Shown one piece after another: positions 1,366 through 64,000 of a stretch of 64,000 bases of DNA. Source of the stretch: an uncultured archaeon (lineage in GTDB: Archaea; Iainarchaeota; Iainarchaeia; Iainarchaeales; JAAZKV01). A program made the position numbers and the translations under genes. Under the pieces are notes generated by a model. The model was given only the letters and a program-made list of their open reading frames with translations. It ran no database searches and had not been told where the DNA came from. Every line of letters starts with the position of its first letter. The first letter of the stretch is position 1. Location of the stretch: assembly GCA_964534045.1 (NCBI GenBank), contig CAZHNO010000003.1, forward strand, positions 37,323 to 101,322, given 5' to 3'.

Positions 1366-1516
1366 GCGTCCGTGATGTAATGGTAGCATAAAAGCCTTCC
1401 AGAGCCTTGTTAAGGCTCGCGAAAGAATTTGCCTATTGACAAGCAATAGGTAGAAAGCGAGTTTAAACAATTGCTGATGTTAGCTTTTTGTCGGGGTTCA
1501 AATCCCCGCGGGCGCA
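1366..1516 (+). tRNA. tRNA-Gly(TCC) with 80-nt intron at 37/38 (intron 1402-1481)
   Basis: Acceptor GCGTCCG/CGGGCGC+A, D-arm ATGT-AATGGT-AGCAT, anticodon stem AAAGC/GCTTT with CT-TCC-A^A, T-arm CGGGG-TTCAAAT-CCCCG; junctions form a bulge-helix-bulge with one U-U mismatch. Confidence 0.93.
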
Positions 1517-12769: not shown

Positions 12770-13546
12770 TTATTTTTTTGCTTTGGCACCTTTTTTTACA
12801 GCATCGCACATTTTTTTTAATTTGTTTGATGCGACATCAGAAGAATGAGAATTTTCTACTGCTGAACCAACATGAACAATGTCTGCACCAGAAGAAATAC
12901 AATCAAATGCATAAGCTGGTTTGTTCACTCCCCCAGCAATTAATAAAGGAATATCAATAATTGATTTTGTTGCCTTAATCATTTCTTTTGTTACTGGTTG
13001 TGAAGCCCCCCCACCAGATTCAAGAATTGCTAATTTAGAGCCCATGTATTGTCCCGCAAGAGCAGTTGCTCCTGCCAAATATGGTAAATTTCTAGGAATT
13101 AATTGTGCTCTTCCAACCCAACCAACTGCCCTGCCTGGTTCAACTAAAATATATGAAGTTGGAATAACTTCCAAACCCATTTTTTTTACAGGCATTGATG
13201 ATGCTACTTGTGCACCAGAAATATAGTAAGGATCACTGCTGTTCAGCATTGACATAAAATAAATTGCATCTGCTAGATTTGACAATGTTGCAATGTTACC
13301 TGGAAAAAGAATTGTTGGAATTTTGCATTTATCTTTTATTTTTGTTAAAGTATCATCAAGTAACTTTCCTTGTGCACCAAGAGAACCACCAATAGCAATC
13401 GCTTTTGCACCAGCATCTTCAGCTATTTTTGCTATCTTTCCGGCTTGTTCTGGAGTTTGATTAGGGGGATCTATTACCAAGAATAATGCTCCAGCCTCTT
13501 CTTGTAATTGTTTCATCAAATTGTTGTATACCTTTGCTTCTTTCAT
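12770..13546 (-). CDS. Geranylgeranylglyceryl phosphate synthase
   Basis: VIDP, IGGS, LFPGN, ADAIYFMSMLNS, YILVEPG, LESGGGA, GGG..GADIVHVGS motifs of the PcrB/GGGPS barrel. Confidence 0.92.
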   Translation of the reverse strand: MKEAKVYNNLMKQLQEEAGALFLVIDPPNQTPEQAGKIAKIAEDAGAKAIAIGGSLGAQGKLLDDTLTKIKDKCKIPTILFPGNIATLSNLADAIYFMSMLNSSDPYYISGAQVASSMPVKKMGLEVIPTSYILVEPGRAVGWVGRAQLIPRNLPYLAGATALAGQYMGSKLAILESGGGASQPVTKEMIKATKSIIDIPLLIAGGVNKPAYAFDCISSGADIVHVGSAVENSHSSDVASNKLKKMCDAVKKGAKAKK

Positions 13547-13644
13547 GATAATCATTAGAAAAAACAAGTATAAAAACATAGTGTAAAGAAAGAAAAATTA
13601 TAAAACAAGGTAAGAATAAAAAGGCTTTGAAAGAGCTTTTTATT

Positions 13645-14895
13645 ATGGATGAGCTAGAAAAAACTATTTCTGAGATAGCTAAAAAAAGTGGAAAAAGTGA
13701 AAAAGAAATAATGAAACTTGTTGATGCAAAAGTAAAAAAATTTGAAGGGTTGCTTACAGAACAGGGCGCTATTTTTATGGTGCAAAAAGAACTTGGTTTG
13801 AAATCAGAAGAAAAAGAGGAAATAAAAATAAGTGAATTAAATGATGGAATGAAGGACGTTGAAATAAAAGGGATTGTGAAAACAATTTACCCAATAAAAG
13901 AATTTGAAAAAAATGGGAAAAACGGAAAGGTTGGTTCTTTCTTAGTTGAAGATGATACGGGAATTGTGAGAATTACTTTGTGGAATGATCAAATAGAAAA
14001 ATATGATTTAACAATTGGAAGCGAAGTAAGGATTGTTGATGGTTTTGTTTCAAGTTATAATGAAAAAAAACAATTATCACTTGGATATAATGGAAAAATT
14101 GAAGTACTAAATAAAAAAGAAGAATTGTTTGAAAAAATTTCTGAACTAAAAGCAGGAATGCAAAATGTTAATTTAGTTGGAAGAATGATTAGAAAATTTC
14201 CGTGCAAAGAATTTGAAAGTGGAGAAAGAAAAGGAAAATTATGCAGTTTTCAATTTGGAGATGAAACTGCATTATTGCGGGCAACAGCTTGGAATGAAAA
14301 AGCAGACGAAATACAAAAATATAACGAGGGGGATGTTGTTGAAATAAAAAATGCATATACAAAAAATGGCTTGGCTGGAATTGAAGTTAACTTGGGCTAT
14401 AGTGCACAAATAAAAGAATCTGATAAAAAGATGCCTTCAATAATTGAAATTTTAAAAGAAAGTGTTAATGAGAAAAAAATAAATGAGTTAATGGAAAATG
14501 AAAATGTAATAATTAATGGAAAGGTGGAAGAAATACAAAAAGGAAATGTTTATTTTTTAGCTTGTGAAAAATGTGGAAAAAAAGTTTCTAACGAAGGAAA
14601 AGCCATTTGTGAGAATTGCGGAGAAGTTAAAGGAGAAAAAAGAGCTGTGCTGAGTGCAATAATAGAAGATGATACTGGAAAAATAAGAACTAACTTTTTT
14701 GGAAAAAATGCACTTAATTTAATTAATTGGAAGCAAAGTGATTTAGAAAAAAATAGTGAAGGAAAAAGCTCAGAAAAAATAATTGAAGAAATAAACGAAA
14801 AAATAAAAGGCAAAAAAATAAAGTTATTTGGTTATGAAAGAGTTAATTCTTATAGTGGAGATAATGAATTTAGTGTGAAAGAAATAGTAAATTAA
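13645..14895 (+). CDS. rpa: Replication protein A (multi-OB fold with Zn finger)
   Basis: Repeated OB motifs (DDTGIVRITLWN, DETALLRATAWN, DDTGKIRTNFFG) plus CEKC...CENC. Confidence 0.9.
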   Translation: MDELEKTISEIAKKSGKSEKEIMKLVDAKVKKFEGLLTEQGAIFMVQKELGLKSEEKEEIKISELNDGMKDVEIKGIVKTIYPIKEFEKNGKNGKVGSFLVEDDTGIVRITLWNDQIEKYDLTIGSEVRIVDGFVSSYNEKKQLSLGYNGKIEVLNKKEELFEKISELKAGMQNVNLVGRMIRKFPCKEFESGERKGKLCSFQFGDETALLRATAWNEKADEIQKYNEGDVVEIKNAYTKNGLAGIEVNLGYSAQIKESDKKMPSIIEILKESVNEKKINELMENENVIINGKVEEIQKGNVYFLACEKCGKKVSNEGKAICENCGEVKGEKRAVLSAIIEDDTGKIRTNFFGKNALNLINWKQSDLEKNSEGKSSEKIIEEINEKIKGKKIKLFGYERVNSYSGDNEFSVKEIVN

Positions 14896-26966: not shown

Positions 26967-27091
26967 ATAATAAATTATCAAAAAAAGAATTTAAAAAAGC
27001 AAGTTAGCTTTCTGGTTATTGAAAATAGCCAAATTCTTCGTATCAGCCAAGTGAAATTGGCTTTTTAAAAGGTTTTGACTAGAAATTATTT

Positions 27092-27359
27092 TGGACTAGA
27101 CTGGGCCGCCAGCGGTGGCTTGTTACCAGAAATCCGCTTTATGCTGGAGTCGAAGCTGAAGAAGAGGTTTTAATGCTAATGCATTTCGCCAAAGGCAAAT
27201 GTCGAAGCTCTGTCCTTACAGGCCCTTTTATGAAACGAACCCCGCCAGACTCGGAAGAGAGCAACGGTAATTTTATTAGAGAGCGCTGAAGGGTAACGGA
27301 GTGGAGTTTGTGTTTGGAAAGAGTGCACTAACTAGAAATCCATTCTTCAGCACGTCCAC
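27092..27359 (+). ncRNA. ffs: Signal recognition particle RNA (7S), about 268 nt
   Basis: Helix 1 TGGAC/GTCCA; Alu domain GACT/AGTC with UGU motif and AGCGG/CCGCT loop-loop complement; helix 5 CTGAAGAA/TTCTTCAG; helix 8 CCCGCCAG-ACTC-GGAA-GAG-AGCAACGG. Confidence 0.93.
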
Positions 27360-27447
27360 TTGATGTGGTGCTATTACAAATAGCACTTAACCACGTTTCG
27401 GAACCGCCCTACGAAATGGGCGAATCCATTCTTCAGTGTGTCCACTT
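27337..27447 (+). repeat. Direct repeat of the SRP RNA 3' end (25 nt, 22/25 identical)
   Basis: AATCCATTCTTCAGCACGTCCACTT (27337-27361) vs AATCCATTCTTCAGTGTGTCCACTT (27423-27447). Confidence 0.9.
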
Positions 27448-27680
27448 ATTGTAGTTGAACTATTTTCTGGTACATTAGCACAAGATAACAAATACGCACG
27501 CTTAGGGATTATCAATTGGAAAACTTCTCATTGGGCTACCAACGGTGCCCTCCGGCGCCGCCTCACGGAAGGGGCGAGAGAAAGGTTTTTATATCATTAA
27601 AACGTTGATTCTTGCAAGTAATCTTAAAATAAGCAAGTGGCTTATTTTATTAAAAAAATGGATTTAATGGAGGATTATCA

Positions 27681-27863
27681 ATGGTTTTCGAAAAGAAAAT
27701 GTCTGTAAAAGATCTTATTGAACAAATGCGACAAGAATTACAGAGAGATAGGTCAACACCAGCAAAAAAAGGTGCAAAAGCAAAATCTGTAAAAAAGGCT
27801 ACAAAAAAGAAGCCTGCTAAAAAAAAGGCAAAAAAAGCTGTGAAGAAAAAAAAGAAAATTTAA
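27681..27863 (+). CDS. Small protein with histone H1-like Lys/Ala/Pro tail
   Basis: GGAGG RBS; helical N-half then TPAKKGAKAKSVKKATKKKPAKKKAKKAVKKKKKI. Confidence 0.75.
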   Translation: MVFEKKMSVKDLIEQMRQELQRDRSTPAKKGAKAKSVKKATKKKPAKKKAKKAVKKKKKI

Positions 27864-27867
27864 AAAA

Positions 27868-28173
27868 TTATTTAGAAGTGCTCTTTTGCACTTCTTTTTC
27901 CAATTTCTTCAACACATCCTGAACAGTTTCAATTAACTGCCAATTGGTTTCGGACGCAACAAACACTTTGTTATTCAATAATAACTTCGCTTTGACTTCA
28001 TGCTGCTTTCTAAGCCCACCTTTAGCATATTCTTTAACTGATAAAGTAAGCTTGTCTGCCCCTAACAAAGGCACTTTTGAAAAAAATCTCTCAAAATTCT
28101 TTACAAAAATTGCATTATCTATCTCATCTACTTTCGGAAACTTGATTAACTCTAAATTAGAAAAACGCTCCAA
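27868..28173 (-). CDS. HPF/RaiA-like ribosome hibernation factor (putative)
   Basis: TTG start with GGGGGAG RBS; beta-alpha-beta-beta-beta-alpha pattern ending FVASETNWQLIETVQDVLKKLEKEV, as in HPF-like modules; judged by eye. Confidence 0.65.
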   Translation of the reverse strand: MERFSNLELIKFPKVDEIDNAIFVKNFERFFSKVPLLGADKLTLSVKEYAKGGLRKQHEVKAKLLLNNKVFVASETNWQLIETVQDVLKKLEKEVQKSTSK

Positions 28174-28206
28174 ATTGACTCCCCCCTAACTTAAATAAAA
28201 ATACTA

Positions 28207-28228
28207 AGAAGTTATTAAAATAACTTCT
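28207..28228. promoter_or_regulatory. Perfect palindrome, candidate bidirectional BRE-TATA or operator
   Basis: AGAAGTTATT-AA-AATAACTTCT in the 69-bp gap between the divergent hpf-like and rsh genes. Confidence 0.7.
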
Positions 28229-28242
28229 ACTAAAAGTAAATT

Positions 28243-30033
28243 ATGTCTAACCTAGTTTTAAATGATGAAACTCTTGAGAGTGAAAAAAAAATTAAAAAAG
28301 CATTTGAAATAATTCAAAAAAGTGGTGAAAAAGAAATACTTTTACGGGCAAAGAGAATTTTGCTTGTTTTAAACAAAAAAAATATGGGTGCAACAACCAC
28401 TATTTCTGCAATACTTTACCCCCTAGTTGAAAAACAAAAAATTAGTCTTGAAGAAATAAATAATACATTTGGACAAGAAGTAATGTTAATCGCAAAAGAA
28501 TGTGTTAGAATAGAAGAAATTCTAAATGCAAATTACAAAAAAATACCCCCTGAAACTTTAAGTGCATTAATACTCTCAATTTCAACCGATTTAAGAACAA
28601 TAATTATTAAGATTGCTGATATTACAGATCAATTAAAAAATAATTCTAGTATTGATAAAAATAAATTTATTTTTTTTGCAAAAAATATATATTCCCCACT
28701 AACTGCAAAGCTAGGAATTTCTGATCTTGGCTGGCAAATTGCGGATTATTGTTTCAAACTAGAAAACCCACAAGGATATGAAAAAATAAAAAAATTGGTA
28801 AATAAAACTCGAGAAGAAAGAGAAAAACTAATTGAAGATATAAGAATTGAAATAGAAAAATTTTTGAGTGGAAAAATAAAAGTACATGTTTTTGGGCGCC
28901 CAAAAAACTTTTACTCAATTCATGAAAAATTAAAAAAAGTATCTTTCAAAGAAATGCATGACATTTATGGAATAAGAATAATTTGCAACAAAGAAAGAGA
29001 ATGCTATGAAATTTTAGGAAATATACATTCAAAATATAATTTCATTCCAAGCGCATTTGATGATTATATTGCCAAAGAAGGAAAGGGGCTTGGGAAAAAA
29101 GGCTATCAAAGCATACACACTGCAATAATAAGAAATAATGACGTTATTGAAATACAAATAAGAACTTGGCAACAACACCTAAAAACAGAATCTAGTATTT
29201 ACTGGGAATATAAAAGATTACGAAAAGATACTACTCTTGACAAATCACTAAGTTGGGAAAGGCAATTGGTGGAGTGGCAAAAAAGTATTGGGGAAGAAAA
29301 TAAAAACAAAAAAATAATTAGTGGAAAATTATTTGTTTTCACTCCAAAAAATGAAGTCATTACTCTTCCAAATAATTCAAGCGCGCTCGATTTTGCGTTT
29401 GCTGTTCATTCAGATATTGGAAAAAGAGTAAAACAAGCAAAAATTAATGGTGAACTAGTTCCAATAGAAACTAAATTAAAAAACTTGGACAAAGTTGAAA
29501 TAATTACTGATCAAAAAACAAAAATCAGGCCAGATTGGTTGAATATGGTGGTTAGTGAAAGAGCAAAAACAAAAATCAAAAGACACTTTGGATTAAAAAG
29601 TGCAATTGTAAAAAAGCAACATGCATCAGAACAAATTACAAAAAAAATAAAACTTGCTGAATGCTGTCATCCTCTGCCAGGGGAAGATGTAATTGGAATA
29701 AAAACCACTAAAAGAAAAATAATAATTCATAAACGAGATTGTAAAAACATAGCAAACATTTCTAAAAATAAAAAAATAGAAATATATTTTGAAAAGGAAA
29801 GAGGAAAAACAAAAATTAAAGTTTTGGCAATTGATAGAATTGGTTTACTGGCTGAAATTCTTGAAGAAATAAAAAGAAATAAAGCAACATTAAGTTCAAC
29901 AAACTTTAATATAAAAAAATCTGGGTATGTTGAAGCAATATTTGAACTTGAAATAAAAAATATAAATGCGCTTGAGAGATTAATTAATAACTTAGAACAA
30001 ATTCCATCAATACAAAGCGTTGATAGGGAGTAA
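28243..30033 (+). CDS. rsh: Long RelA/SpoT homolog (degenerate HD, synthetase, TGS, ZFD, ACT)
   Basis: GRPKNFYSIHEK, DIYGIR, DYIAK...GYQSIHT, EIQIRT, FVFTPKNEVITLP...DFAFAVHSDIG, AECCHPLPGEDVIG, C-terminal ACT (AIDRIGLLAEI). Confidence 0.95.
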   Translation: MSNLVLNDETLESEKKIKKAFEIIQKSGEKEILLRAKRILLVLNKKNMGATTTISAILYPLVEKQKISLEEINNTFGQEVMLIAKECVRIEEILNANYKKIPPETLSALILSISTDLRTIIIKIADITDQLKNNSSIDKNKFIFFAKNIYSPLTAKLGISDLGWQIADYCFKLENPQGYEKIKKLVNKTREEREKLIEDIRIEIEKFLSGKIKVHVFGRPKNFYSIHEKLKKVSFKEMHDIYGIRIICNKERECYEILGNIHSKYNFIPSAFDDYIAKEGKGLGKKGYQSIHTAIIRNNDVIEIQIRTWQQHLKTESSIYWEYKRLRKDTTLDKSLSWERQLVEWQKSIGEENKNKKIISGKLFVFTPKNEVITLPNNSSALDFAFAVHSDIGKRVKQAKINGELVPIETKLKNLDKVEIITDQKTKIRPDWLNMVVSERAKTKIKRHFGLKSAIVKKQHASEQITKKIKLAECCHPLPGEDVIGIKTTKRKIIIHKRDCKNIANISKNKKIEIYFEKERGKTKIKVLAIDRIGLLAEILEEIKRNKATLSSTNFNIKKSGYVEAIFELEIKNINALERLINNLEQIPSIQSVDRE

Positions 30034-56281: not shown

Positions 56282-56370
56282 TTTTGCCCTTTTTGTATTG
56301 TTTTTCTTTAAAGAAGTTACAATTATAAAGAAAGATTAAGTATTATTAGCAGGTTAGTTGGGTGTGAATT

Positions 56371-59300
56371 TTGCATAAGATAATTTTAGCTTTAGCTGTA
56401 CTTTTAGTATTGTTTCCTTTAGTATTTTCTGGTGATTGTTCTTCTCCTTATTTCAAATCAGTTGCTTGTTTTGATTTGAATCATTATTTTGATTTTAATG
56501 GTTTTGTTTCAAATCCTTTAAACACAACTTTTATTACTGCGAGTGGGGAATTAGATTGGAATAATTTAGATGGGGGGAGTGAACTTTCTTCAAGCAACGC
56601 TCTTTTTGATTCTAATTTAGTTGGTTTGTGGCATTTTAATGGAAATGCGCTTGATAGTAGTGGGAATGGAATTGATGGAACTACAAATAATTTTGATGGT
56701 GATGAAACAACTAGGGGGTTGTTTGGAAGTAATGCTTATGATTTTGACGGAACAAACGACCACATTACTTTTGGGACTTCAACATTAACAAGCGGGGCAA
56801 CAACAATTAGTTTTTGGTATAATTATGATACTGGTGATGGTTATATTGCCGATTTAAAAGTTGGTGGTGCTTCAGGAGCATTTTTTGCAGCAACAAATAG
56901 TAGTATCTGTTGGGCATTCAGAGGGGTTAGTGGAACAATTTGTGGAGCCATAAATGTTTCTGGTTGGACTCATGCATTAATTACTTATAATGGTGGAACG
57001 ACAAGTGATGTTGGAAATTATGCTATTTATATAAATGGCAGAAGCATTCCTCTTACAAATTATGGTTCTCAGGGGGGTTCTACTTCAATAAATTATTTGG
57101 GTTATGTTGTTGGGGGCACTTATTTTAATGGAAAAATAGAAGAACTTGCTATTTGGAATAAAGCATTAACTTCTGATGAAGCGCAAGTGGTTTATGATTC
57201 ACAAAAAAAAAATTGGTTAGATGAAAATTTAATTGCTTATTACAAATTTAATGAAGCTAGCGGAACAACTATTTATGATTCTGCAAGAGGGCATAATGGA
57301 ACCCTTACAAACGGAGCAAGCGTGAATGCAAAAGGAATGTGGGATACAAATGCTTTGATTCTTGATGCGAGTAATGATTTTGTGAATGTTACTGGGGGAA
57401 TAGATAATAATTTTTTTAATGGTTCAATTTCTGTTTGGTTTAAAACTACAAACAAATCAAATAATCGGTATATTTTTGAGGCTACAAACACCACTCCAAG
57501 TGAAGGAATATATGTATACATTAACATTACTACTGGAAAGTTAGGTTTTTATGGTGCAAATGATGGTTCTGCAATATTTGATATATTATCCAATAAAGAT
57601 ATGACAGATGGGCAGTGGCACCATGCAATTGGTGTGTGGGATAACACTCAAGCAAGCTTATACATTGATGGATTATTACAAACTGACTCCGAAAGCGGGG
57701 ATAATACTTTAGATATGCAAGCGCCATTCACTAGAACTCTTATTGGAAGTTATAACGGGGGTTATAATTTTGGCGGTTCAATAGATGAATTAAAAATTTA
57801 TGATAGGGCTTTGACAGAAGAAGAAATTCTTTATGATTATAACAATTTTTTAAATAACAAATTTGTTGCTGATGAAAATGCAATTATTCATGCAGTAGAT
57901 AATTCTCTTCGTGATTGGAATTATTTTAAAATTAATGAAAGTTTGTATTATGATTTTGGAAAAGAAATGCAATCACACTTTGATGGAACAAGCAAAACGA
58001 ATGAGCTTACTTCAGCAAGTTCTTTGTTTGATTCTAATTTAGTTGGCTTGTGGCATTTGAATGGTAATGCACTGGATAGTTCTGGAAGTGGGAATAATGG
58101 TTCTTGGGGCGGAAGCGAAGAATATACAACTGGGTTGTGGGATACAAACTGTGGAGATTTTGATGGAGTGAGTAACTATATAACAGTTTCAAATGATTCA
58201 AGTATTGATTTTGCTGATGAGGATTTTTCCGTATCGGCATGGATTAATGTAAATAGCTTTCCAAATGTTGGTCAGTTTATTGTTGGAAAAAATTATGGAA
58301 GCACTGGTGTTAAATGGTATGCTCTATCTGTCACTAATGTTGGGGAATTATATTTCTCAATTGATGATGGCACAAATATTGTAACCGCGCAGTCTAAAAC
58401 AGGAACGATTGAAATTGGAAAATGGTATCATATTCTTGGACAAAGAGACACTTCAGCAAGCAAAGTTAGACTATATATTAATGGAATAGACATTAACTCC
58501 TTAAGCGAATCAGCTGTTGGTTCAATAAGTAATAATGGTCCCTTTGTAATTGGTGCAAGAGCAGATTTGTCTTCTTCAAGATTTTACGATGGAAAGATAG
58601 AAGAAGTCACAATTTGGAACAAGGCGTTGTCTACAACAGAAATTCAATCTCTTTATAATTCTCAAGCATCACAATTTCATGAACCAGATATTAATGTTCT
58701 TTATCATTTCAATGGAAATGCTTTGGATTCTAGTGGAAGTGGTTATCATGGAACTCTAGTAAACTTTGGCGGTGATGAAAATGTTTCTTGTTTATGGGAC
58801 ACTAATTGTTTTAGTTATGGTGGGACAAATGAATATATCCAAACTACTTTTCAACCACAATATGTAAAGAGTGATTCAACAGGATTTTCACATAGTCTTT
58901 GGTTTAGAAAACCTTACTCAGGAAATTGGGAATATATGTTGGGGGTTGCTGCGCAGGCTCCCTCGTTGTATTATCTTTTTTCTAATGTTGGAATATTACA
59001 AGTTGGTTTTAGCACTAATGAAACATCAACAGTTTGTAATATGTATACTCCATATCGTGTTGATGATAATTTGTGGCACAATATAATATTTACTCGTGGG
59101 GGCGCACAAGGGGCAACAGCACACAATTTGTATTTGGATGGGGTTTGGGTTGATTCAGAATGGTATCAAGGAAATTGTGATGAAAACATGTACTTCCAAG
59201 AGCCTTTTTATTTTGGAAATAGAAATCCTTCGGGTGGTGAACCAACAAATAATTGGTTTGTTGGAGAAATAGAAGATTTTGTTGTGTGGAATAGAAAATT

Positions 59301-62300
59301 AACCGAACAAGATGTGGTAGAAATTTACAGAAAAGGAATTTCAAAATTAGATTTGAATGTTTATTCTTGTAGTGATGCAAGTTGTTCAACAAAAACAGAT
59401 TCAGAATATTTCTCGGATGTAAATAATAATTCTAATTTAAATTTAGCCAATTTAAATCCTTCAGCGTATCTTGGTTATGAAACTTATTTCAAACCAATAT
59501 CAACTTTCCAAGATTATAATGCTGGGAGATTTTTTGTTTTGAGTTATTTGAGTGATGTTTCAGTTGATTCAACAACTGGGAATACTGTTCCAGTTGCAAC
59601 AATTGATTTTATTGAGGGTTCAAGTGCGTCTGGTGCACTGCCTTACTATTCTTTTATTCAAGATGGAACAATTGATGTTAACTTTTCTGTTACAGATGAT
59701 GATAACAACCCATTAACAGCAAATTTTTATTTTACAGATAGTTTGGTTGAGAACACAAGTGGAACTTTAATGACAACAATTGATTTGAACACAGATTATT
59801 GTGATTCAGCAGACCTGACTTTAGATGTAAATTGTTATTATGATATTAATTCTTTGATAGCAAGTGATGGAAATTATTATTTGAAAATAATTGTTAATGA
59901 TGGTTATTCTAATGATTATGCTTTTTCTTCGGAATTTGGTTTAGATAATTCTGCACCAACAATAACAACAACAAATACCCACAATGATTGGAATAGAGAA
60001 AAAGCCAGAGTAACTTTTACTTGCTCAGATGCTGGTTCTGGTTGTGATTTAACAACTTATAGAATTAATGGTGGTTTATGGAATACTTATTCTTCAGCAA
60101 TTAGTATTAGTGGAGATGGGAATTATCAAATTGATTTTAATGCAGTAGATGCAAAAGGAAACGTTTCTGATTTAAATTCTTTAAATGTTTTAGTTGGTTT
60201 TAATGGTTTGTTAAAAACTTTTAATGATGAAAATAAGCCAAGAAGCTTTTTTGGTGCAGGAGAAAGAGTTGAATTAATTTTTGATGTTAATTTGAATGTT
60301 GCACCAACAATTTCTATTATTGATTCTAACAATGCTGAGGTAATTTCTGGAACAATGACAAACATTTCACAAGACACTAATTTAGGCAGAAATGATTTGA
60401 ACACTTATTATTATGAATTTGATGTTAATGGTGCACAAGGTTGGTACGACGCCCAAGTACAAAATCAATTATTCGAAGACGCATTTTACCAATCAAATAT
60501 TTGGGTGGATGCTTACACTTCAAATGATGGAAATGTATTTCCGTTCAGTTTAGATTTGAATGTTTATGAACCAAATATCCAACAAAGATGGTTCTATCCA
60601 ATTGATACAAATATCCCGTTTACTTTTGGAACAAAACTAAAATCAATAAGGGTTTTAGATTTTAATGGCACACATTACAAAGAAATCCCGGCAGAAATTT
60701 ATTCACCAGTTTATTCTGGACAAAATATTTCTCAAGCAAATATTGTTTTCTTATCTTCTCTCGATCAAAATGAAATAAGAAATTATTTTGTTAGTTATTC
60801 AATTGTTGATATTAATAAAGAATATTTAACCGATTTAAATGCAAATTGGAACTCTTATGAATTGGACATTAATTCAAGCAATTATTTTGTTCAATTTGAT
60901 GTGAACAAGGGGGCAGCAATTGAACTCTTAAGAAGTAGAAAAGGAACAAATAGTGGTTTGAATTTTGGAAATGAGTTTGACAGAGCGCCAATGATTGATT
61001 CTGATTTATCATCAAATACTTATATTACAAGCATCACTGCGCCTTCTTACACAATTACTGCAGGAAATTTAATTTACAAATTAAATACTTCTTCATTAAT
61101 TAGTTTTGCTGATTATAATTTGAATTATACAATATATGCAAAAAGCCCTTATTTTTTACAAGATATAAATATTGTTTCGCGTGGAGCAGTTTATTGGGAT
61201 GATTACATTGACACAAACCCAAGAATTATTCCAAATAAATTTGAAAAATATTCTTACTTACAAAACAATTCTCTTTTAACACAAGATATTAATGCATTAG
61301 GGAATGCAAAATCACTTTCTGACATAAATTATTTAGTAGTTTACAACAAGCAATTAGATTCATTTGGGCAAATTTTCTTAGAAACAGATTCATCAAAAGC
61401 AGAGTCACAAAATATTGCATTTAGGGATTTGTCAAATTCGTTATATTGGGAAAATACGCTATTAACTGTCCAAAATATGGCTACTGGAGATTATGTTCAC
61501 ACAAAGAAAGCAATTGTTTTATCAAATCCATTAAATGGGGCAGAAGATATTAACAAAATTTTTACAAGCTTAGCAAACCCTTTAACAATTATTGTTGGAA
61601 ACACAACAACAAATGATTCTGGTTCTCCCCCAACAAATATTTCAATTGCTTATTCTCCAACAGATATTAATTCAAACACGGATGTAAATTGTTATTCAAG
61701 TTGGCAGGATGACACAATAATTAACACAATTATATTGAATGTTTCTGGCCCAAACACTGATGTTAATTATTCTTTCTCTGTGCTTGATGCGAATGCGTTT
61801 GTTTCACAATTAATTAGTTCAACTTATATTAATGCAGGGGATTATAATTGTAATTTTATTGCTACTGATGCTGCCGGAAATACAGATTCGAATTATGTTT
61901 CATTTTCTGCAATGGATATTTCTGCACCTGATATTTATTCAGTGATTAATACTCCTGATGGAAACGCTGACATTGATATTGATTCAAATATTGTTGTTGA
62001 TGCTAATATTGCAGAATACACTGGATTAAATTCAGTAACCTTATATTATAGGGATTTAAATGCTGACGCAGTTTCTGGCTGGAATGAATGGCAAACTACT
62101 GCAATGAATAATGATGAAAATTATTCTGACACAAATTATGGTTATTCAGCAAATTTTATTGCTACTGAAAATATTTGGCAGTATTTTATTAATGCAATCG
62201 ATTCTAATGAATTAGATTCTAATTCTAATGTTGTTACATTATATGCTTATGATGATTATACTTGGGAATTTACTCCAAGCTCTTTCGGAACAAAATCAGG

Positions 62301-64000
62301 GCCATTATTACAAAATATTACTGTTGGAAATCTCACAATTAATAATAGTGGAGATTATGCATTATCATTTAAACTTTCAAGCAATTGGGATGACAAGTAT
62401 GCTATTTGGTATGATGATATTGAGGAAACAACTTCAGGGTATGCTTTTTCAATTGCTTCTGGAGCATCAGAAATTATTGCAGTAAAAGTTAAAGCAAAGC
62501 CAACAGGAAAAACTGATGCTTTAACAATTAATGTTGATGCCACAACTGCTTTAGCAAGCCCGTCAATTGATTATTCAACAGCAACAATTGTTTCTTTATC
62601 AGAAGAACCAGCATTATATTTAGAATTAGTGTCAACAAATAATTCAGCAACGCAAGGAGACACAAATGTTTACTATTCTGCAAGGATAACTAATGTTGGA
62701 CAGCAAAATGCAACAAATGTTTTCTTTGATTGGAACTATCCAAGTGACTGGGTAATTAATTCAGGGGTTGAATCATTAAGTGGTTTTAGTTTGTCTTCAT
62801 CGTCATCTTATTTAAGTACAATTTCGTTTAATGTTTCTTCCTCAGCAACAACTGGAAATCAAACAATTACTTTTGGTGCAGGTTGTTGTTCTGATTTAAA
62901 TAAAAATCAATCAACTTCAACAACAACTTCGGTGGTAGCATATAGCTCAGGCACTGGTGACACAGGTGATATTGGAAATACTGGGGGTACAAGTGGTGGC
63001 CCTGATGGTTCAGGAGCTTCAGGTTCAAGCGGGGGAAGTATTTTTGTTGGGACTCAAGCAGATTTGTTTTTCCAAACAAACGAATTTTTTGAACTTGTGC
63101 GAGGTGAAGATAATTCTTTCCCAATAAAATTTACTAACCCTTTAAAGAATAAATTAATTGATATTGAATTAAGTGTTGAGGGAATAATTTCGAAATATTT
63201 AAGGTTGAAAAATTCTTCAATAAATTCACTTGATTCAAATGAAGAGTTTTCTACAAGCATTGAAATTATTTCTCCAAAATATTTTACTCCAGGGATTTAT
63301 TCTTTGAATTTTATTATTAAGGGTATTTTATTAGATGATTATAATAGAGAAACTAATTTTATTGAAGAAAGAGAAATTTCTTTATTGATTCATGACACTA
63401 ACAAAGAAACTGCTGAACTATATATAGTTGAAATGGAAAAATTTTTACTTGATTTAAATGAATTTAATTTGAGCTTGAATGATTTACCAAAGTTAATTGA
63501 AAAATCAAAGAATTCTTTGGAAAATAATCAGTTTGATGAAGTTGCAAAAATATTTGATGAAGTAAAAAAGACGTATGATTCTGCTATTGAAGCCAGAGTG
63601 AAGAGTGGACAAATTACTGGTTTGGTTGGTTTTGCGAATTCAAAAGGAATTGAGACGCCTAATACGGATAGGTTGTTGATGCTTGCACAATTAGCATTAC
63701 AGCGAGGTGATTACGCTCTTGCTCTTTCTAGATTAAAAGAAGCAGAACTAATGTATTCTTTAGAAACAAAGGGAGAATTTAATTTTGTAATTTGGGCTCT
63801 GGCAAATTTTGATAAGTTATTACTTATGGCTGGCTTGTTTTTAGTTGCGATGTATATGTTTGCTTTGGGAATAAAAATTATTATTATAAAAAGAAAGTTA
63901 AAGTTGTTAGCGTCTGAAAATAACTTATTGTTGTCTTTGATAAAAAATTTGCAAAATCAATGTTTTGTTGAAAACAAGATTAGTATTGGAGAATATTACG
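56371..64000 (+). CDS. Giant surface protein (>2,540 aa, partial) with four LamG domains, Ig-like domains, G/S linker and C-terminal TM
   Basis: TTG start after GGTGTGA, signal peptide; lines read in this frame show no stop; LamG signatures (LVGLWHFNGNA, WYHI, LYING, FNGKIEEL.IWNKAL) four times; absent from ORF track, consistent with no stop before the window end. Confidence 0.9.
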   Translation, partial: MHKIILALAVLLVLFPLVFSGDCSSPYFKSVACFDLNHYFDFNGFVSNPLNTTFITASGELDWNNLDGGSELSSSNALFDSNLVGLWHFNGNALDSSGNGIDGTTNNFDGDETTRGLFGSNAYDFDGTNDHITFGTSTLTSGATTISFWYNYDTGDGYIADLKVGGASGAFFAATNSSICWAFRGVSGTICGAINVSGWTHALITYNGGTTSDVGNYAIYINGRSIPLTNYGSQGGSTSINYLGYVVGGTYFNGKIEELAIWNKALTSDEAQVVYDSQKKNWLDENLIAYYKFNEASGTTIYDSARGHNGTLTNGASVNAKGMWDTNALILDASNDFVNVTGGIDNNFFNGSISVWFKTTNKSNNRYIFEATNTTPSEGIYVYINITTGKLGFYGANDGSAIFDILSNKDMTDGQWHHAIGVWDNTQASLYIDGLLQTDSESGDNTLDMQAPFTRTLIGSYNGGYNFGGSIDELKIYDRALTEEEILYDYNNFLNNKFVADENAIIHAVDNSLRDWNYFKINESLYYDFGKEMQSHFDGTSKTNELTSASSLFDSNLVGLWHLNGNALDSSGSGNNGSWGGSEEYTTGLWDTNCGDFDGVSNYITVSNDSSIDFADEDFSVSAWINVNSFPNVGQFIVGKNYGSTGVKWYALSVTNVGELYFSIDDGTNIVTAQSKTGTIEIGKWYHILGQRDTSASKVRLYINGIDINSLSESAVGSISNNGPFVIGARADLSSSRFYDGKIEEVTIWNKALSTTEIQSLYNSQASQFHEPDINVLYHFNGNALDSSGSGYHGTLVNFGGDENVSCLWDTNCFSYGGTNEYIQTTFQPQYVKSDSTGFSHSLWFRKPYSGNWEYMLGVAAQAPSLYYLFSNVGILQVGFSTNETSTVCNMYTPYRVDDNLWHNIIFTRGGAQGATAHNLYLDGVWVDSEWYQGNCDENMYFQEPFYFGNRNPSGGEPTNNWFVGEIEDFVVWNRKLTEQDVVEIYRKGISKLDLNVYSCSDASCSTKTDSEYFSDVNNNSNLNLANLNPSAYLGYETYFKPISTFQDYNAGRFFVLSYLSDVSVDSTTGNTVPVATIDFIEGSSASGALPYYSFIQDGTIDVNFSVTDDDNNPLTANFYFTDSLVENTSGTLMTTIDLNTDYCDSADLTLDVNCYYDINSLIASDGNYYLKIIVNDGYSNDYAFSSEFGLDNSAPTITTTNTHNDWNREKARVTFTCSDAGSGCDLTTYRINGGLWNTYSSAISISGDGNYQIDFNAVDAKGNVSDLNSLNVLVGFNGLLKTFNDENKPRSFFGAGERVELIFDVNLNVAPTISIIDSNNAEVISGTMTNISQDTNLGRNDLNTYYYEFDVNGAQGWYDAQVQNQLFEDAFYQSNIWVDAYTSNDGNVFPFSLDLNVYEPNIQQRWFYPIDTNIPFTFGTKLKSIRVLDFNGTHYKEIPAEIYSPVYSGQNISQANIVFLSSLDQNEIRNYFVSYSIVDINKEYLTDLNANWNSYELDINSSNYFVQFDVNKGAAIELLRSRKGTNSGLNFGNEFDRAPMIDSDLSSNTYITSITAPSYTITAGNLIYKLNTSSLISFADYNLNYTIYAKSPYFLQDINIVSRGAVYWDDYIDTNPRIIPNKFEKYSYLQNNSLLTQDINALGNAKSLSDINYLVVYNKQLDSFGQIFLETDSSKAESQNIAFRDLSNSLYWENTLLTVQNMATGDYVHTKKAIVLSNPLNGAEDINKIFTSLANPLTIIVGNTTTNDSGSPPTNISIAYSPTDINSNTDVNCYSSWQDDTIINTIILNVSGPNTDVNYSFSVLDANAFVSQLISSTYINAGDYNCNFIATDAAGNTDSNYVSFSAMDISAPDIYSVINTPDGNADIDIDSNIVVDANIAEYTGLNSVTLYYRDLNADAVSGWNEWQTTAMNNDENYSDTNYGYSANFIATENIWQYFINAIDSNELDSNSNVVTLYAYDDYTWEFTPSSFGTKSGPLLQNITVGNLTINNSGDYALSFKLSSNWDDKYAIWYDDIEETTSGYAFSIASGASEIIAVKVKAKPTGKTDALTINVDATTALASPSIDYSTATIVSLSEEPALYLELVSTNNSATQGDTNVYYSARITNVGQQNATNVFFDWNYPSDWVINSGVESLSGFSLSSSSSYLSTISFNVSSSATTGNQTITFGAGCCSDLNKNQSTSTTTSVVAYSSGTGDTGDIGNTGGTSGGPDGSGASGSSGGSIFVGTQADLFFQTNEFFELVRGEDNSFPIKFTNPLKNKLIDIELSVEGIISKYLRLKNSSINSLDSNEEFSTSIEIISPKYFTPGIYSLNFIIKGILLDDYNRETNFIEEREISLLIHDTNKETAELYIVEMEKFLLDLNEFNLSLNDLPKLIEKSKNSLENNQFDEVAKIFDEVKKTYDSAIEARVKSGQITGLVGFANSKGIETPNTDRLLMLAQLALQRGDYALALSRLKEAELMYSLETKGEFNFVIWALANFDKLLLMAGLFLVAMYMFALGIKIIIIKRKLKLLASENNLLLSLIKNLQNQCFVENKISIGEYY

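Follow-up and report, generated by a model that had tools for sequence, protein, structure and literature searches.

The spacer between the divergently transcribed rsh and hpf-like genes of this archaeon contains an inverted repeat (Table 1) that we interpret, with a likelihood slightly better than even, as a symmetric archaeal core promoter that is read in both directions. Such a promoter would consist of a single TATA box, TTATTAAAATAA, with a mirror-oriented, purine-rich, BRE-like AGAAG motif at either side, and TBP on this box would be able to recruit TFB facing either gene. RNA polymerase heading for rsh would initiate at the ATG or right beside it, yielding a leaderless mRNA; heading for hpf, it would initiate near position 28192 and give this gene a leader of ~19 nt that carries the ribosome-binding site GGGGGGAG. 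Through this common platform for initiation, expression of an alarmone synthetase would be coupled to that of a ribosome-hibernation factor. We infer both start sites, the TBP/TFB binding, and the co-regulation of the two genes as parts of this reading. The main interest of the case is the apparent tie between a RelA-like alarmone synthetase and a hibernation factor of the HPF fold in DPANN archaea. All positions refer to the window, i.e., the whole stretch of 64,000 nucleotides that was analysed.

Table 1. Features of the hpf-rsh spacer and its flanking genes (window positions)
Feature	Position	Strand	Remarks
hpf-like gene, 101 aa, TTG start	27868..28173	-	Pfam S30AE; AF2 fold
Shine-Dalgarno (SD) sequence GGGGGGAG of hpf	28179..28186	-	5 nt before the TTG
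Predicted hpf transcription start	28190..28194	-	Inferred as TATA centre 28217.5 minus 24-27 bp
Purine-rich AAGAAG, BRE-like, rsh direction	28206..28211	+	Directly 5' of the AT box
Inverted repeat AGAAGTTATT-AA-AATAACTTCT	28207..28228		Perfect 10-bp arms around 2 bp; core conserved within the hpf-rsh spacer
AT box TTATTAAAATAA, proposed shared TATA box	28212..28223		Centre 28217.5
TAGAAG, BRE-like, hpf direction (plus strand CTTCTA)	28224..28229	-	Mirrors the left arm
rsh, 596-aa long RelA/SpoT homologue (RSH)	28243..30033	+	ATG at 28243; predicted start site ~28243

The divergent hpf-rsh gene pair

The window has a GC content of ~30% and contains an archaeal SRP RNA (Archaea_SRP) at 27089-27361, which identifies the host as an archaeon. 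As the host is an archaeon, a bacterial sigma-70 promoter was ruled out as the nature of the repeat. A scan of species-representative genomes yielded 79 RSH loci, and the hpf-like gene is present in 37 archaeal loci among them. In 31 of the 37 Iainarchaeota loci that hold both genes, rsh and hpf are immediate divergent neighbours with spacers of 61 to 212 bp, so that the two form a fixed divergent pair in most of the RSH-bearing Iainarchaeota loci examined. The gene order TGT, SRP RNA, small ORF, hpf, rsh, CARDB protein, and KaiC-like ATPase is kept in nine further loci, and in all of the extra loci, which encode the closest RSH proteins, the divergent hpf and rsh genes are separated by 46 to 73 bp, compared with 69 bp in the window.

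The rsh product displays the Pfam domains HD_4, RelA_SpoT, TGS, and ACT_4 in the order that is typical of long RSH proteins. Its nearest relatives (62-67% identity) come from Iainarchaeota (Diapherotrites) genomes assembled from metagenomes, and its first methionine is invariant in 38 homologues. The best relative of solved structure is Escherichia coli RelA (E = 8e-82). The hydrolase HD motif is replaced at residues ~55-61: the SAILYPL found there corresponds to AALLFPL in E. coli RelA, which is hydrolase-dead, and an intact HD catalytic dyad is not present in this alignment. Because of this replacement, the archaeal long RSH is probably RelA-like and synthetase-only, which would raise the question of what degrades the alarmone. 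A published survey found RelA/SpoT in 69% of Diapherotrites genomes and assigned it a bacterial origin (PMC8407392).

Assignment of the minus-strand gene relies on its predicted structure. Its product matches the Pfam S30AE family with E = 0.005 and 18.0 bits, below the cut-off of 23.7, and TIGR00741 with a score of 17.9, below the cut-off of 40.9; 16 of 41 orthologues match at E < 0.01, and RaiA is the JGI name for close homologues. An AF2 (AlphaFold) model, built on 24 database homologues, has a pLDDT of 89.4 and the secondary structure E-H-E-E-E-H, and the top 35 Foldseek matches in the PDB are all HPF/RaiA/pY proteins (TM 0.51-0.74, best E 9e-6). The modelled beta-alpha-beta-beta-beta-alpha arrangement and these matches support the HPF/RaiA fold, so that, as far as the fold is concerned, the name "hpf-like" of the original prediction is correct. 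A recent catalogue covers standalone archaeal HPF homologues (PMC12934967).

The inverted repeat and the chance level

Positions 28207-28228 of the window read AGAAGTTATTAAAATAACTTCT, and the reverse complement of this segment differs from it only at the central two bases (AA versus TT). The segment had initially been described as a perfect 22-bp palindrome. The 10-bp arms are indeed perfect, but the central AA is not self-complementary, which makes it a 10-2-10 inverted repeat, as correctly rendered by the accompanying arm-AA-arm notation; the flanks, with the rsh ATG at 28243 and the hpf-like gene behind GGGGGGAG, are likewise as described there.

Taken by its sequence alone, the repeat is not beyond chance, since such repeats are common in a window of ~30% GC: perfect repeats with 10-bp arms and a spacer of up to 6 bp occur 9 times in the window and 4.0 +/- 2.5 times in dinucleotide shuffles, of which 77% contain at least one such repeat with a spacer of up to 2 bp. 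About 4 such repeats are thus expected per 64 kb, which would allow a chance inverted repeat in AT-rich spacer DNA. This explanation is refuted, and now appears extremely improbable, because all 22 positions are identical in four species at the same position relative to both genes, against 33-55% identity in the flanks.

As RNA, the repeat could also form a stem of 9 bp capped by a loop of 4 nt (-8.1 kcal/mol, z = -3.3 versus shuffles), and the stability of this stem would agree with an RNA or DNA hairpin that serves as a 5'-UTR structure or a terminator-like element. We consider such a role highly improbable. Both genes point away from the repeat, leaving nothing to terminate, and the repeat lies outside both predicted mRNAs, given a leaderless rsh and an hpf start at ~28192. 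The stem is AU-rich, unlike the G+C-rich stem of a terminator, and is not followed by a T-run; moreover, the variants found in three relatives (L090, L088, and L093) break base pairs with no compensating changes.

Conservation in relatives

Three other species of Iainarchaeota (represented by L003, L004, and L091/L092) carry the repeat at the same position with 22/22 identity to that of the window, and in L004 its arms are extended to 11 bp. There is one substitution in L090, two in L002/L088, and three in L093. Among the exact carriers, pairwise identity of the spacer outside the repeat is 33-55%, as compared with 35% expected at random from base composition, and the RSH of the window is 61-62% identical to those of L003, L004, and L091. 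With all 22 positions conserved and the flanks close to random, the repeat is lifted above the chance level, and the sequences compared indicate that it is held unchanged in at least four lineages.

In the RSH tree, the window clusters with L083, L087, L080, L085, and L001, and the sister clade of this group comprises L003, L004, L091, L090, L088, and L093. Since carriers fall in both of these sister sub-clades, the repeat is ancestral to both. The five close relatives that cluster with the window have lost the left arm and have kept the AT core and most of the right arm. The right arm is generally the better conserved of the two, with AACTTCT, AACTTTT, or AAGTTC found in 11 of the 12 close relatives. 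The original prediction had staked itself on conservation of the element in relatives, and the repeat turned out to be letter-perfect or nearly so in 7 of the 12 close spacers, distributed over two sister sub-clades. The end of a mobile element or a recombination site was ruled out, as the repeat is single copy and keeps its place between hpf and rsh in every species.

In more distant Iainarchaeota (these include L010, L012, L013, L018, L021, L026, L029, L030, and L034), the place of the repeat is taken by a strongly conserved but non-palindromic sequence, RGTTTAAAAAAAGAATTG, at -31 to -14 relative to the rsh ATG. Symmetry is therefore not required for the hpf/rsh pair as such. In these loci, a GAATTG downstream of the TATA box is conserved.

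Eight sequencing runs were found for the locus, all of them metagenomes of wastewater, landfill, or sludge DNA; a search for the window locus and for the L003 orthologue brought up no RNA run. In the four runs whose DNA contigs were compared with the locus, the strain of the window shows no differences. One wastewater run (X1) additionally contains a second species, an Iainarchaeota archaeon of the L003 type, which carries the same 22-mer and co-occurs with the window's organism in a single sample; in this part of the locus, the contig of this species aligns only at the conserved end of hpf and at 28206-28228, which independently gives the same picture of conservation.

The rsh direction

The centre of the repeat, at 28217.5, lies 25.5 bp before the rsh ATG. 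Anchoring the orthologous spacers on the rsh start codon reveals, in 33 of 39 loci, a TTWAAAA box whose centre lies at -24.5 to -27.5; its distance to hpf and the rest of the spacer vary across loci. No SD sequence was found in the 16 nt upstream of the rsh ATG, and a TTTWAAA box ~26 bp before the ATG is also seen at many other genes of the window. The fixed position of the box near -26 argues for a leaderless rsh, and the centre of the repeat would be the TATA box of the leaderless mRNA, since it coincides with the conserved box and an SD is absent. Assuming a leaderless rsh, a single candidate TATA box is thus found at about -26 from the rsh start, in agreement with the original prediction of a start site near the ATG.

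The purine run 5' of the box has the look expected of a BRE. Its AAGAAG resembles the AGAAAGG located 5' of the TATA box in those promoters of the phylum that are best conserved, and AGAAAGG-TATAAAG precedes rsh in L020, L023, and L024. As the repeat is symmetric, the minus strand has the same BRE-TATA arrangement, with putative BRE-like elements inverted around the candidate TATA box. The purine-rich, BRE-like stretch plus AT box that had been proposed on both strands is borne out in this respect, both arms matching the AGAAAGG BRE of the phylum.

For scoring, we used a position-restricted promoter matrix derived from 35 other genes of the window, as an unconstrained Gibbs motif search on the upstream regions of the window suffered from the noise of AT-rich DNA. 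The best match of the spacer to this matrix falls at the repeat on both strands, with 6.1 bits at 28202-28221 on the plus strand, a score within the top 0.4% of window positions, and 6.5 bits at 28233-28214 on the minus strand. AT-rich boxes are common in a genome of 30% GC, which counts against the shared-promoter reading. Next to hpf, the small ORF has a one-way promoter with 81-97% conservation over ~40 nt; as one-way promoters can be equally conserved in the phylum, conservation alone is no proof of two-way use.

The hpf direction

Wherever a species carries the repeat, a strong SD precedes hpf, whose start codon is TTG, GTG, or ATG; of the 39 orthologous loci, 35 have an SD-like motif between -8 and -17 of hpf. 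Counting from the centre of the repeat, the predicted hpf leader is 11 to 19 nt long and has the SD inside in every repeat carrier. The minus-strand start, which had been predicted just upstream of the hpf SD, would by this geometry lie ~19 nt before the TTG of the window, and the predicted starts of hpf (~28192) and rsh would be ~51 bp apart (49-53 bp, from geometry only).

The same geometry does not extend to all relatives. In L083 and L087, with spacers of 46-47 bp and an SD-like motif present, a shared box would have hpf transcribed from a point ~4 nt into the gene, and where the spacer exceeds 90 bp, it would give implausibly long hpf leaders. An alternative is a one-way rsh promoter, in which the right arm would be simply the TATA-to-start segment and hpf would use a separate AT box, for which the minus-strand TTTACTTTTAG at 28227-28242 and TATTTTTATTTAAG at 28191-28204 are the candidates. 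In its favour, a leader with an SD is impossible from the shared box in L083 and L087, strong comparative support belongs to the rsh geometry, and the one-way promoter next door is likewise conserved through its TATA-to-start segment. We regard this explanation as quite improbable in view of the candidate boxes themselves, which are not conserved among the carriers and score lower with the window's promoter matrix. The AT-rich stretch at 28190-28204 is not conserved among relatives either, and a box there would start transcription at the TTG, bypassing the conserved SD. In addition, with a one-way promoter the complementarity of the five outer arm positions would be left to chance, estimated from base composition at ~0.3^5 or less.

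Conservation and geometry thus speak for the shared two-way promoter put forward by the original prediction, and the loss of the left arm in five relatives and the misfit of L083 and L087 speak against it.

A possible operator

The symmetry could instead reflect a protein dimer: the repeat would then be an operator overlapping the rsh core promoter, bound by a homodimeric transcription factor that acts as repressor or activator. We see this as a possible but unlikely explanation. Its 10-2-10 architecture is typical of the sites of dimeric regulators, both half-sites of the inverted repeat are conserved in four species, and the outer arms include G/C positions that are dispensable for a TATA box. 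Also, all 22 bp are letter-perfect at 61-62% protein identity, which is tighter than TBP and TFB usually need. Palindromic operators of dimeric archaeal regulators (TrmB-family, SurR, and Phr sites) overlap the BRE/TATA region, and the repeat resembles them in being an inverted repeat of ~20 bp that is located over a core promoter between divergent genes. It differs from them in its sequence, in the coincidence of its centre with the TATA box, and in that neither a cognate regulator gene nor a second site was found.

Several observations argue against an operator. The 22-mer pattern is found just once in the window when up to 3 mismatches are tolerated (0.04 expected), and a second copy with up to 3 substitutions is absent, outside the spacer, from both the 64-kb window and 374 kb of related loci, a search limited by the fact that the window makes up ~6% of a genome of roughly 1 Mb, the size assumed for DPANN archaea. 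In a half-site search, the only exact copies were the two arms, and the excess of half-sites over shuffles reflects the composition of coding sequence. A metagenome-wide scan for the 20-bp core, GAAGTTATTAAAAWAACTTC, returned 48 exact matches, just one of them in an hpf-rsh spacer, and gave no evidence for a regulon; the other matches represent coding sequence, hairpins, and a recurrent element of high-GC bacteria. No recognizable regulator gene is found in the neighbourhood, which consists of TGT, SRP RNA, the small ORF, hpf, rsh, CARDB, and KaiC, and the two arms decay independently in relatives.

An operator would be compatible with co-regulation of hpf and rsh and could coexist with a two-way promoter. 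In a more specific form, which we consider rather unlikely, the repeat would bind a dimeric stress regulator that switches on the RelA-like synthetase and the HPF factor together; if an operator of a dimeric regulator is what it is, the repeat would offer the first cis-regulatory handle on a stringent-response-like circuit in Archaea.

The recurrent element just mentioned, GCCCAGCTCCCCGCAGAAGTTATTAAAATAACTTCATTACG, encloses the 20-bp core of the repeat in metagenome contigs of 52-57% GC (L094, L095, L101, L103, L104, L118, L121, L136, and L138) and is unrelated to the archaeal locus.

Comparison with known systems

Shared-TATA promoters are already known in archaea, and the present case is a tidy one, not a new one. 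Our preferred reading, a symmetric core promoter used in both directions, corresponds to the BRE-TATA-BRE promoters of Pyrococcus furiosus (PMC6640164) and of Thermococcus kodakarensis and Haloferax volcanii (bioRxiv 10.1101/2020.01.31.928960), with which it has in common a quasi-symmetric TATA box, opposed BRE-like elements, and an AT-rich genome. In P. furiosus, dRNA-seq revealed antisense starts ~50 bp upstream of primary starts, and an in vitro system produced both transcripts, with starts 49 bp apart (PMC6640164); in T. kodakarensis, divergent starts are mostly 52 bp apart around one TTATAAA box (bioRxiv 10.1101/2020.01.31.928960). The ~51 bp predicted here from geometry compares with the 49-52 bp reported for these promoters. 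There are also two differences. The second transcript of P. furiosus is mostly a non-functional antisense RNA at head-to-tail genes, whereas here the two directions would serve two conserved protein genes, and, unlike in the known cases, the whole 22-bp element is letter-perfect across species. Two-way promoters on one TATA box have generally been described in archaea mostly as origins of antisense RNA with no function. Staying unchanged at ~62% protein identity, the two-way architecture appears to be kept by selection for two functional genes.

At the level of gene content, the pair of a long RSH, with E. coli RelA as its best match, and a protein with the HPF/RaiA fold recalls the stringent response and ribosome hibernation of bacteria. 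Expression of hpf in bacteria rises with (p)ppGpp. The system described here differs from the bacterial RelA/SpoT-HPF one in its DPANN archaeal host, its archaeal-type promoter, the fixed divergent arrangement of the two genes, and the degenerate HD motif of its RSH. Archaeal ribosome hibernation is only now being worked out, and (p)ppGpp has not been detected in archaea (PMC12934967). A shared promoter, if that is what the repeat is, would provide a compact, testable unit of ~70 bp with which to probe the existence and the timing of a stringent-like response in DPANN archaea.

Additional features of the window

The small Lys-rich ORF (MVFEKKMSVKDLIEQMR...; 27681-27863, plus strand) encodes 60 aa in the window and 72 to 112 aa in relatives and has no match in Pfam or NCBIfam; nearly all related loci have it located between hpf and the SRP RNA. 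Its promoter, gAGAAAGGTTTTTATAtcAtTAAAACgTTGATTCTTGCAA (27577-27616), whose 81-97% conservation extends across the phylum, provides an example of the BRE-TATA layout of the phylum, with AGAAAGG-TTTTTATA preceding the ORF. Between this promoter and the SD of the small ORF there is a second perfect repeat with 10-bp arms, TAAAATAAGC-AAGTG-GCTTATTTTA, at 27625-27649, which is absent from the relatives' spacers that were compared. Directly after the SRP RNA lies a non-coding stretch of ~220 nt (27362-27580), with a GC content of 44% over 27362-27620, as against 30% for the genome; it has no Rfam match at E <= 1, is not conserved in related loci, and may be a novel structured RNA or an insertion.

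A divergent spacer of 47 bp at 13580-13626, between genes at 12770-13579 (minus strand) and 13627-14895 (plus strand), contains a single central TTTTATAATTT box located ~22-26 bp from both start codons, which makes it a possible second shared-TATA promoter in the window. Rfam detects a tRNA spanning 151 nt at 1366-1516 (plus strand), which was not reported by ARAGORN and is probably an intron-containing archaeal tRNA. Finally, an open frame of more than 2544 codons (56368-63999, plus strand) begins with a signal-peptide-like hydrophobic segment, runs off the end of the window, and probably encodes a giant surface protein.
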